IMG/VR virus record: IMGVR_UViG_3300021963_000054
Coordinates: 1 to 64,000 of that record
DNA length: 64,000 bases
Strand: one strand, 5' to 3'
Source: a virus
The notes under the pieces were generated by a model. That model was not told the DNA's origin. It saw only the letters and a program-made list of their open reading frames with translations, and did no database searches. Position 1 is the first letter of the stretch, and each line of letters begins with the position of its first letter. Below are positions 11,891 to 13,934 of the stretch, one piece after another. A program made the position numbers and the translations under genes.

Positions 11891-12568
11891 ATGTTTACCT
11901 ATTGCCCACCTAAGAAACTTGAAGACTTAAAATCAGAAACACTAGAGAACGGAAGATTTTATGTGACGCCAGATGGTAAGAGATTGCCATCTGTAACAAC
12001 AGTCTTGGGCGCAATGGGTAAGAAAGCCATCTATGAATGGCGCCAGCGTGTTGGTGCAGAGGAAGCAAATCGTATATCACGAATTGCATCTGGGCGTGGT
12101 ACACGTATGCATACGCTATGCGAAAAGTATTTGAATAATCAAGACATAGGTAAACCGATGCCCGATGCTTTGGAATTGTTTAGAAAAGTAAAGCCGTATC
12201 TAAATAAAATCAACAACATTCATTATCAAGAATGTGCATTGTGGTCAACAAAACTTGGCATGGCTGGGCGTGTAGATTGTATCGCAGAATATGATGGTGT
12301 TCTTTCTGTCATTGATTTTAAGACTTCGGCTAGAGTGAAAACAAGAGAAGATATTCCTGCATATTTTGCTCAATGTACCGCTTATGCATTGATGTATGAA
12401 GAATTGATTGGTGTAAGAATTGACCAAATAGTTGTTATCATGGCAGTTCAAGAAGATAACCCAATCATCTTTGTTGAGCCGATGAGAAAACATATAAATA
12501 CTTTACTAGAGTATATTAGTTTTTACCGAAAACAAAATGAAAAGAACAATTATTACCCGACAAACTAG
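11891..12568 (+). CDS. PD-(D/E)XK exonuclease
   Basis: LPSVTTVL, RGTRMH, AGRVDC, VIDFKTS, QCTAY; typical neighbour of phoH. Confidence 0.88.
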   Translation: MFTYCPPKKLEDLKSETLENGRFYVTPDGKRLPSVTTVLGAMGKKAIYEWRQRVGAEEANRISRIASGRGTRMHTLCEKYLNNQDIGKPMPDALELFRKVKPYLNKINNIHYQECALWSTKLGMAGRVDCIAEYDGVLSVIDFKTSARVKTREDIPAYFAQCTAYALMYEELIGVRIDQIVVIMAVQEDNPIIFVEPMRKHINTLLEYISFYRKQNEKNNYYPTN

Positions 12569-12585
12569 TTTTGTTGTGTTATAAT
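12493..12585 (+). promoter_or_regulatory. Candidate late (TATAAATA 12493-12500) and sigma70 extended -10 (TGT-TATAAT 12580-12585) promoters upstream of the tmRNA
   Basis: Exact T4 late consensus, plus an extended -10 about 6 nt before the presumed acceptor-piece start. Confidence 0.55.
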
Positions 12586-12591
12586 TAGTGT

Positions 12592-12995
12592 TATTGCTGT
12601 ATGAAGCAAAGAGAAAAGTGTCCTGGACGGGGGTGCGAATCCCCCCACCTCCACCATAAGGATTTAAGTGGATAATAAACTTAAAGAATTGCAGGAAAAC
12701 TTAGCTAAAGATTTAGTTAAGTGTGAAGCCCGTGAGGGAATAACATTAACTGAAGAAAATTTAGAAAAGATTTCCGATGCTTATTCAAAAGTTTATGATA
12801 TCATTACTGAGATAAAATCTTTATGATGGGGGTGACCTAGATTCGACAGGGCAACAAGTACATGCGTGGACAGCACGGTAGGCGATGACCGTAAATCAAG
12901 CAAAAAACGTAAATGCAAATGACGAAAGTTTTGCTTTAGCGGCCTAAACGCCGCTTAGGGTTTCGGTAGGTTTCCTCGTAACAGAATAACCTACC
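12592..12995 (+). ncRNA. ssrA: Circularly permuted (two-piece) tmRNA
   Basis: Acceptor piece: T-arm GGGGG-TGCGAAT-CCCCC 12629-12645, CACCTCC-A-CCA 12646-12656. Coding piece: begins GGGGGTG 12828-12834 (7/7 pairing with G3.U70), then GATTCGAC, with CAGGGC pairing to GTCCTG. Tag ANDESFALAA* 12915-12947 with hairpin AGCGGC/GCCGCT; terminal hairpin GGTAGGTT/AACCTACC 12965-12995. Outer ends are approximate. Confidence 0.93.
12668..12826 (+). CDS. 52-aa helical protein nested in the tmRNA intervening segment
   Basis: TAAGGA RBS 12657-12662, GTG start; MDNKLKELQENLAKDLVKCEAREGITLTEENLEKISDAYSKVYDIITEIKSL*. Fills 159 of the 171 intervening nt. Confidence 0.6.
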   Translation: MDNKLKELQENLAKDLVKCEAREGITLTEENLEKISDAYSKVYDIITEIKSL

Positions 12996-13019
12996 AATAT
13001 TTTAACAAGGAGTTTTATT

Positions 13020-13556
13020 TTGAAGAAAATCGCAATCGCAAGTTTAATTGCTATCGCCGCTACAGTACAAGCTGGTGGTTTTGTTTCGTATGGTGTTGAC
13101 CAAGTTACTGACCGAGTAAGCAACCAACAAAGTATCGCACAGTATGTCCGTGCTGGTACTACGTTAGGTGGTTTCAATCTTGGCTTGCAAAATCGCAATG
13201 CTCGTACTAATGACAATCTCTCCATGTACAATAGTTTGGAACTTACCGCTGGTAAAACAGTTTTTGGTATTAACCCATTCGTTGGCGTTGGTTTTGATAA
13301 TGGTGGCGCTGGTGCAAAGCCATATGAATATGGTCTAGTCGGCGCAAACGCTGGAGTTAAAGTTGGTCCTGGTTATGCCATGGCTGGTGCTAAGACCCGT
13401 GTAAATTGGGATAGCGCAAATCCAAAACAATCTGTAGTATTTGCTAGTTACGACATGCCAGTCATCAGCAAAGTATCTGTTGGTGTTGGTGTTAGCCAAA
13501 GCTATCAAGATATTCAAGACCGTGCGGTCGGACTTACAGTCTCAGTAGGATTCTAA
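13020..13556 (+). CDS. Outer-membrane beta-barrel (porin-like) protein
   Basis: AAGGAG RBS, TTG start, signal peptide ending VQA, alternating amphipathic strands, terminal ...VSVGF (BAM-type C-terminal Phe). Confidence 0.75.
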   Translation: MKKIAIASLIAIAATVQAGGFVSYGVDQVTDRVSNQQSIAQYVRAGTTLGGFNLGLQNRNARTNDNLSMYNSLELTAGKTVFGINPFVGVGFDNGGAGAKPYEYGLVGANAGVKVGPGYAMAGAKTRVNWDSANPKQSVVFASYDMPVISKVSVGVGVSQSYQDIQDRAVGLTVSVGF

Positions 13557-13614
13557 TATCGGAGTTTGTTAGTTCTCAATAAAAACTAACACACACTAAC
13601 ACACAGGAGAAACT

Positions 13615-13887
13615 ATGTCAAACATGACACCTTTTGAGATACGCCTTGACCTACTAAAAATGGCACAAGGAATGCTATCAGATGATTATTATGGTAAGCG
13701 TGAACAAATCAGTAACGATTGGTCCATGCAATGTGAATCTGCAAAAATCAAAGGCGAGACACCGCCAGCACACCCAGGCTTTCCGCCTTACCCCTCCGAA
13801 ACAGAAATTATAGCCAAAGCACAAGTGCTTAATGGTTTCGTTTCTAACGTTTCTATAGAAACTCCAAAAGTCTCTAAGAAATCTTAA
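13615..13887 (+). CDS. Conserved phage hypothetical protein
   Basis: AGGAG RBS; TPFEIRLDLLKMA...YPS...IIAKA..LNGFVS. Confidence 0.75.
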   Translation: MSNMTPFEIRLDLLKMAQGMLSDDYYGKREQISNDWSMQCESAKIKGETPPAHPGFPPYPSETEIIAKAQVLNGFVSNVSIETPKVSKKS

Positions 13888-13934
13888 TTGGAGGTATGCC
13901 AGTTATCTGGCATTCACACACAGAAAGGAAACAG

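Follow-up and report, generated by a model that had tools for sequence, protein, structure and literature searches.

A selected small-protein gene in the spacer of a phage permuted tmRNA gene, with its ribosome-binding site and stop codon in the closing stem

INTRODUCTION

In known two-piece tmRNAs, the intervening segment is removed on maturation. That cuts of the tRNA type can also delimit messages is known from mitochondrial transcripts, in which RNase P and 3'-processing cuts define the mRNA (tRNA punctuation) and the stop codon can lie right at the cut. Operons that mix tRNAs and mRNAs include the tufB and tyrT operons of Escherichia coli and the tRNA region of phage T4. Messages with paired ends are represented by the hok/sok type I toxins, whose mRNAs are inhibited by folding back, the 5' end that bears the SD sequence pairing with the mRNA's own 3' end.

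Phage two-piece tmRNAs have been published for aquatic T4-like myophages, namely, OM43 phage Melnitz and pelagimyophages (PMC9004378), and cellular beta-type permuted tmRNAs are covered by Rfam families RF01850 and RF04321 (PMC11915505). Intervening sequences with a tRNA-Ala gene or a repetitive element have been described, each as a singular case, as have group I introns in the tmRNA T-loop, some with LAGLIDADG homing-endonuclease genes (36/883) (PMC11915505).

Here, we describe a permuted tmRNA gene from an uncultured phage that shares with the phage and beta-type two-piece tmRNAs the order acceptor piece-spacer-coding piece, the G3.U70 alanine stem, a tag of the ANDxxxALAA type, and a promoter of its own. 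Whereas the spacer is non-coding in the papers on those tmRNAs (PMC9004378, PMC11915505), the spacer of this one holds what sequence comparison indicates to be a selected protein gene with its SD and stop codon in the stem that closes the spacer. The original prediction, which was made from the DNA letters alone, knew of no description of this arrangement, and our full-text literature search likewise found no description of protein genes in a tmRNA spacer; a "split tmRNA" match in a ribosome-profiling paper concerns the tag peptide only. What is new, then, is the apparently selected protein gene in a tmRNA spacer, whereas the release of an mRNA by tRNA-type processing and the RNA gene itself are known.

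RESULTS

An ordinary two-piece tmRNA gene with a 171-nt spacer

The source contig is a 105-kb IMG/VR record of an uncultured T4-like phage from a lake, with an estimated completeness of 61%; the window is the whole stretch of DNA that was analysed, the first 64,000 nucleotides of that record. ARAGORN called a permuted tmRNA with the tag ANDESFALAA at positions 12564 to 13038, and the locus scored 138.8 bits with Rfam model RF04321 (cut-off, 47) and 115.2 bits with RF01850 (cut-off, 84). The 3' tRNA-like half is encoded upstream of the 5' half, with CCA ending at 12656 and G1 at 12828, which is the order that defines a permuted tmRNA. The acceptor stem has 7 bp, formed by GGGGGTG (12828-12834) and CACCTCC, and contains the alanine identity pair G3.U70; the tag reading frame, read by ARAGORN as ANDESFALAA-stop, lies at 12915-12947. 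The predicted promoter of the gene has 10/12 consensus matches and an extended -10 element and falls, in the Rfam alignment, on the promoter portion of the beta_tmRNA model. The tmRNA itself is an ordinary member of the phage two-piece (permuted) type. Direct reading agreed in every position with the coordinates that had been predicted for CCA, the 171-nt spacer, G1, the ORF, and the SD. The features of the locus are as follows.

12557-12585, + strand: predicted sigma-70-like promoter of the tmRNA gene (CCGACA, 17 nt, TG-TATAAT), from a consensus scan
12595-12656, + strand: tmRNA acceptor piece (3' tRNA-like half), from the RF04321 alignment, ARAGORN, and direct reading
12629-12645, + strand: T-arm, from direct reading, RF04321, and ARAGORN
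12646-12652, + strand: acceptor 3' strand CACCTCC, followed by A73 (12653) and the encoded CCA (12654-12656), the same bases as in the acceptor piece
12655-12665, + strand: 5' strand of the closing stem, holding the SD TAAGGA (12657-12662), from MFE folds and register pairing
12657-12827, + strand: intervening segment (spacer) of 171 nt between CCA and G1, from direct reading and Rfam
12668-12826, + strand: 52-codon gene with GTG start and TGA stop, from the ORF list; predicted two-helix hairpin of the "LQENLAKDLV" small-protein family
12815-12827, + strand: 3' strand of the closing stem (12815-12825) and TGAT leader, coding for I-K-S-L and the stop
12828-13004, + strand: tmRNA coding piece (5' tRNA-like half from G1, tag frame, 3' structures), from ARAGORN and RF01850, its end being that of the RF01850 alignment

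The spacer ORF is a gene under selection

The TAAGGA sequence begins at the first spacer base and is followed, after 5 nt, by the GTG codon at 12668, and the TGA codon at 12824-12826 ends one base before G1. According to the original prediction, this frame is a protein-coding gene nested in the tmRNA gene, an idea that would have to be given up if homologous spacers had frame-breaking indels and stops and no conservation of the ribosome-binding site. The opposite was seen, in that the frame, SD, and stop are kept and dN/dS is well below 1. With the 52-aa product as the query, 33 loci with 51 to 98% identity were recovered from viral contigs, and a family profile recovered 55. Among 1.84 billion representative proteins, a profile search retrieved 63 clusters, nearly all of them nameless proteins of 48 to 66 aa. 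Relatives of the ORF start with ATG or GTG and have the SD AAGGA or AAAGG at a proper spacing, and those that have another C terminus stand outside any spacer.

Codon alignments of relatives gave dN/dS values of 0.05 to 0.23 (11 pairs with measurable dS). The window and its closest relative (L093) are separated by 15 synonymous and 5 non-synonymous changes (dN/dS, 0.05; 0.06 to 0.23 for the other pairs), and in the spacers of the window's own clade all differing positions are synonymous and the protein is identical, as read from the alignment by eye rather than by separate computation. Taken together with the free-standing homologues, these ratios bear out the predicted nested gene, and on such comparative evidence the spacer ORF is a genuine gene under selection. 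A blastn search with the locus and a tblastn search with the ORF found no match in 50,697 deposited phage genomes, and hence no cultured relative with the gene.

The closing stem supplies a start signal and a stop codon

The original prediction had the two flanks of the spacer pairing over 11 bp, with the ribosome-binding site paired to the last codons of the ORF. This pairing, between CATAAGGATTT (12655-12665) and AAATCTTTATG (12815-12825) with one G.U pair, is present in both the MFE and the centroid folds, and as a minimal hairpin it is worth approximately -9.3 kcal/mol. In related spacers (n = 108), position +i after CCA pairs with position -(i+4) before G1; over positions +1 to +10, pairing is found in 93% of cells, compared with 39 to 56% when one strand is slid, and 5 to 7 pair types per stem position reveal covariation. 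The CA of CCA pairs with the TG of the TGAT leader in 98 to 100% of spacers, and TGAT is the spacer end in 30/32 tmRNAs of a sample drawn without reference to TGAT. With U(-1) opposite A73, the closing and acceptor stems make up a nearly continuous helix of ~20 bp, on which, we speculate, a double-strand-specific nuclease could also act.

The covariation of the closing stem that the original prediction had made a test of its case was thus found, though to the same degree in spacers without an ORF: among 115 distinct phage tmRNAs, the stem is equally good in non-coding and coding spacers. Because it covaries equally without an ORF, the stem appears to be a processing feature that genes make use of and not one that evolved for the 52-codon gene; in these T4-like freshwater phages, the spacer is a hairpin whose basal stem extends from the CA of CCA over ~10 more pairs to the TG of the almost invariant TGAT leader. 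This stem is presumably kept so that the two tRNA-like halves meet when their ends are processed. With GG at positions +4 and +5, its 5' strand becomes AAGGA, which is a ribosome-binding site, and the TGA of TGAT is a stop codon, so a frame placed between the stem strands gains, as far as sequence can tell, its start signal and its stop for free. Since the stem sequesters the SD (approximately -9 kcal/mol), translation might be poor.

Spacers of related phages are a slot for unrelated small genes

Spacers were collected from two samples of tmRNAs drawn independently of any ORF, 80 loci anchored on the upstream PD-(D/E)XK nuclease gene and 119 anchored on the G1 junction pattern; the junction finder returned 139 permuted tmRNAs, 115 of them distinct, with spacers of 20 to 382 nt. 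All relatives come from metagenomic contigs. Many of them are close kin, so that the spacer counts are not counts of independent events. A full-span ORF was present in 19 of the 23 spacers of 130 nt or more, 17 times with an SD, against 0.46 (0.06 with an SD) expected from shuffled interiors, and in 5 of the 11 spacers of 100 to 129 nt, against 1.3 expected. An SD-like motif in the first 9 nt tracks the full-span ORF (30/32 versus 17/83; Fisher p = 2e-13), and ~20% of the tmRNAs in both independently drawn samples carry an SD-led ORF.

Clustering of the ORFs from 161 distinct tmRNAs showed that ~20 unrelated families share the spacer position, among them the 52-aa family of the window, a 123-aa and a 50-aa family (both also under purifying selection), and single ORFs of 34, 39, 54, 66, and 68 aa; many of the spacer ORFs of sister phages encode hydrophobic peptides of 23 to 38 aa. 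In the 30 SD-led spacer ORFs, the start codon lies at +10 to +16, with one at +24. The stop codon is the TGA of TGAT in 21 of the 30, lies 9 to 12 nt earlier in 4, and lies 12 to 39 nt inside the mature coding piece in 5. Cargo-bearing tmRNAs are still intact: all 7/7 acceptor pairs and the tag frames are present, and they score 59 to 130 bits with Rfam. That phages use the spacer as an exchangeable slot for small genes is strongly supported by these sequence comparisons. One option in the original prediction was a neutral safe-harbor slot carrying variable genes in related phages. Its cargo slot with variable contents has held up (~20 families and the swaps described below); the word neutral goes further than these comparisons do, the SD and stop coming from a stem that is itself conserved.

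Several of the other cargoes have features of their own. Three phages with spacers of 80 to 98 nt (L041, L186, and L132) encode conserved tryptophan-rich hydrophobic peptides that start M-F-(D/E)-x-W-H-W behind a strong SD; their frames have no stop before G1 and end 12 to 39 nt inside the coding piece, so that a cut at G1 would leave a message without a stop. The 123-aa cargo (L107-L113 and L234-L246, with 382-nt spacers) has a Q-x-x-G-x-G-like motif and gave weak but consistent Foldseek matches to GNAT acetyltransferases (best E value, 0.013; model pLDDT, 65), and a homologue with 67% identity (L247:1501-2421) makes up the N terminus of a longer protein (at least 306 aa) encoded outside any tmRNA. 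In L104 and L292-L297, a 215-nt spacer holds two tandem hydrophobic ORFs (36 and 30 aa), and a gene of the 52-aa family stands directly upstream of the same tmRNA; one phage can therefore carry the neighbor gene plus other cargo.

Spacer content is exchanged between close relatives

An exchange is seen in L003, a phage that shares ~93% identity with the window in the 3.8 kb before the spacer and the 0.8 kb after it. In place of window positions 12661-12820 it has 49 unrelated bases, which leave a 60-nt non-coding hairpin, and the break points of the swap fall inside the closing stem. At least three types of T-arm and coding piece are found among the tmRNAs that carry the 123-aa cargo, and the 52-aa cargo occurs with acceptor strand CACCTCC or CAGGTCC and with two T-arm types; thus, cargo and carrier do not have one common history. 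Recombination through the conserved tmRNA halves would be the simplest cause of the exchange.

The window and L003 also differ ~0.8 kb downstream of the tmRNA, where window positions 13596-13915 (ORF 13615-13887; 90 aa; no Pfam match) are absent from L003, a second small-gene indel.

The 52-aa gene is found inside and in front of tmRNA genes

Most of the 55 loci of the 52-aa family lie in a spacer, end 73 to 91 nt before CCA (directly upstream of the acceptor piece), or lie 260 to 550 nt upstream, and a few copies have no tmRNA within the available stretch. Seen from the gene, the linkage is strong; seen from the tmRNA, it is not: the tmRNA loci that were chosen independently of the ORF hold the family in only 3/116 cases, all three in the window's own clade. 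Copies inside a spacer make up five sequence lineages with spacers of 170 to 172 nt, and all of them end in -KSL, coded by the 3' strand of the stem. In a family tree built on short sequences, which does not resolve the -KSL group or allow events of capture and exit to be counted, a -DKPKE clade is well supported and is never inside a spacer.

One relative (L094/L262) has the ORF inside the shell of a decayed tmRNA. The ORF there retains the two ends of the spacer, and on either side of it are degenerate acceptor strands (CAGGACC-ACCA upstream and GAGCCTG downstream). No T-arm is left, and immediately after comes an intact tmRNA whose 119-nt spacer is non-coding. Upstream copies of the -KSL type (e.g., L266) still end in the stem's TCTTTGTGAT. 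This shell and this ending suggest that the gene moved between the front and the inside of the tmRNA gene, at least once each way, or that the tmRNA was replaced behind the gene. The duplication-and-loss model for permuted genes, in the form in which PMC3978253 cites it, fits such movement of the 52-aa gene.

Free-standing family genes in two loci, L291 (= L112) and L114, have a T4-type late-promoter motif, TATAAATA, 13 nt upstream, whereas the sole promoter upstream of the in-spacer copies is that of the tmRNA; the timing of expression may therefore differ. In a variant from the window's clade (L009/L091/L259; contig IMGVR_UViG_3300008120_002492), codon ~163 of the PD-(D/E)XK nuclease gene is joined to codon 4 of the 52-aa ORF, with loss of the nuclease C terminus and the whole acceptor piece, while the ORF body and the coding piece stay. 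The join may be an assembly error; if it is real, it is a deletion that disables the tmRNA.

The 52-aa product is predicted to be a two-helix hairpin

An AF2 model based on the family alignment has helices at residues 2 to 23 and 29 to 51 (pLDDT, 75). The peptide had been described beforehand as amphipathic and helical-looking, a description that the modeled amphipathic two-helix hairpin matches, and the model points to a soluble protein rather than a membrane peptide. Pfam, PHROGs, a PDB profile search, and a Foldseek search of the PDB gave nothing usable, and the best score against the ESM Atlas, 0.86, is below the meaningful level; the structure search proposed along with the original prediction thus returned no usable match from the PDB or the ESM Atlas. 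Our best guess is that the 52-aa product is an accessory small protein that modulates the host rather than a part of trans-translation.

Spacer folding and bacterial tmRNAs

The whole spacer of the window folds unusually well (z = -6.1). ORF bodies in spacers fold better than those of free-standing homologues (mean z, approximately -3.0 versus -0.6; one-sided Mann-Whitney p = 0.0025); however, the closest relative, L093, has z = -1.3, and the difference is no more than a hint that they are under a second constraint. A conserved interior RNA structure was considered and dropped, the consensus energy across the five lineages being -2.3 kcal/mol.

Among 141 genomes from a single bacterial class, a permuted tmRNA scored above the Rfam cut-off in 136, a tally that takes in one unpublished genome (G045) by match length alone. 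Full-model matches span 181 to 343 nt in the bacteria, compared with 353 nt in the window and 242 nt in L003 with its 60-nt spacer, lengths which indicate that the bacterial spacers are mostly shorter than 80 nt. Among the eight longest bacterial matches, ARAGORN delimited seven, with spacers of 29 to 133 nt, and none of the seven has an SD-led ORF ending in the closing stem. A pattern scan of genome contigs yielded 4 tmRNAs among 120 loci, the rest being almost all chance matches.

DISCUSSION

We consider it likely that the 52-codon ORF is a selected gene in an exchangeable spacer slot, that the carrier tmRNA gene supplies its promoter, SD, and stop, and that it is released by tRNA-type end processing and translated. 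The gene would be transcribed from the tmRNA gene's own promoter at 12557-12585 as part of one transcript; RNase P would cut at G1 and 3'-end processing would cut at CCA, and the two cuts would release the SD, ORF, and stop together as an RNA of ~170 nt. Translation would take place on this excised RNA or on the precursor before cutting, with the stem partly masking the SD and so limiting output. The tmRNA halves on either side of the slot are highly conserved, so when phages infect the same cell, homologous recombination between them could swap what the slot holds. We infer the cutting into two RNAs and the discarding of the spacer by analogy with bacterial two-piece tmRNAs, whose processing we take as it is cited in PMC3978253 and PMC9004378.

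The geometry is compatible with an excised mini-mRNA and with competition between translation and processing, both of which the original prediction had put forward as options. In a strict version of the latter, ribosomes would open the stem and, on reaching the stop, cover the 5' acceptor strand, so that translation and maturation would be mutually exclusive and the cell's translational state would show in the amount of small protein relative to tmRNA. Such a switch could explain why the SD begins at the first base past CCA and the stop codon is a single base short of G1, why the stem continues the acceptor helix, and why the TGA-of-TGAT layout recurs in 21/30 SD-led spacer ORFs. We regard it as unlikely all the same: the stem and TGAT are equally conserved in the ~80% of spacers that have no ORF and hence did not evolve for a switch, the cargo is unrelated between phages, and the ORFs that stop 9 to 12 nt earlier or run past G1 indicate that no single geometry is required. 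It is improbable, too, that the nesting amounts to coupling because the 52-aa protein is a working partner of the tmRNA, e.g., one that modulates SmpB, tagging, or how tagged proteins are proteolyzed. Most of the 55 family members do lie in the spacer or upstream of a tmRNA, and the phage contig encodes no SmpB, but synteny alone can account for the linkage, the slot holds ~20 unrelated genes in other phages, and the protein has no similarity to known factors (Pfam, PHROGs, PDB profile search, and Foldseek). The occurrence of the family in just 3/116 independently chosen tmRNA loci, all from the window's clade, means that the tmRNA does not need the 52-aa protein. We give little credence to a further extension, in which 3' trimming turns the excised mini-mRNA into a non-stop message and its product is tagged by the tmRNA cut from the same transcript. 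Between the stop and the 3' end left by RNase P there would be a single base, so the loss of 2 to 3 bases would suffice. If this were true, the dose and lifetime of the cargo would be policed by its own carrier tmRNA, and a non-stop message would be built into those sister families whose frames extend beyond G1.

Two other readings we rate as very improbable. If the ORF were untranslated and open only through RNA-structure constraints in an A+T-rich hairpin, the unusually good fold of the spacer (z = -6.1) and the better folding of in-spacer ORF bodies would be expected, but the changes are mostly synonymous, the interior fold lacks conservation (consensus of -2.3 kcal/mol; z of -1.3 in L093), free-standing genes that have other flanks conserve the same protein, and the SD closely tracks whether an ORF is present; on these sequence data, a reading in terms of RNA structure only is largely refuted. 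A selfish mobile element inserted in the tmRNA gene, in the manner of homing-endonuclease genes in group I introns, would agree with the presence or absence of the gene in near-identical phages and with the safety of a slot that is excised at the RNA level. Against it, the product has only 52 aa and no nuclease, integrase, or transposase domain in Pfam or PHROGs, Rfam finds no intron, and the borders are those of the conserved stem, with no repeats or target duplications.

Under the preferred reading, that of a selected gene in an exchangeable slot, the spacer gene most likely works, by analogy, like a tRNA-punctuated mRNA. The difference is that both flanks here belong to one permuted RNA and are paired together, so that the mRNA, its ends joined in a duplex, is embedded in a stable-RNA gene. 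The likeness to group I introns in tmRNA genes is a protein gene in a part absent from the mature RNA; those introns, however, are self-splicing and their ends are ligated, whereas removal here would be by tRNA-type end processing with no ligation, and they carry selfish nuclease cargo, whereas the phage spacers hold varied small non-nuclease genes with their expression signals within the processing stem. With the hok/sok type, the locus shares the masking of the SD by 5'-3' pairing, and many cargo ORFs of sister phages encode hydrophobic peptides of 23 to 38 aa; the protein of the window differs in being a predicted soluble amphipathic hairpin. A consensus scan of positions 12300-13300 showed no antisense promoter; of the marks of a type I toxin, neither a small hydrophobic membrane peptide nor a cis-antisense RNA was seen at this locus.

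A stable-RNA gene that delivers an mRNA from its "waste" segment would blur the line between RNA-processing signals and translation signals. It would be a natural expression cassette, in which the carrier gives the promoter, SD, and stop and phages trade the contents by recombination. Genome annotators are pointed to tmRNA spacers, where small genes systematically escape notice or are hidden under the tmRNA call. The locus makes two questions testable, whether by-products of RNase P and 3' processing are translated and whether trans-translation acts on a message made beside its own tmRNA. The 50-aa family consistently linked to phage tmRNA genes and the ~20 other small genes are candidates for a role in host takeover. 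These points bear on tmRNA, RNA processing, small proteins, and the plasticity of phage genomes.

Directly downstream of the tmRNA, positions 13020-13556 of the window hold a 178-aa ORF with no Pfam match, whose product has a signal-peptide-like start and is glycine rich with alternating residues; it may be an outer-membrane beta-barrel-like protein.
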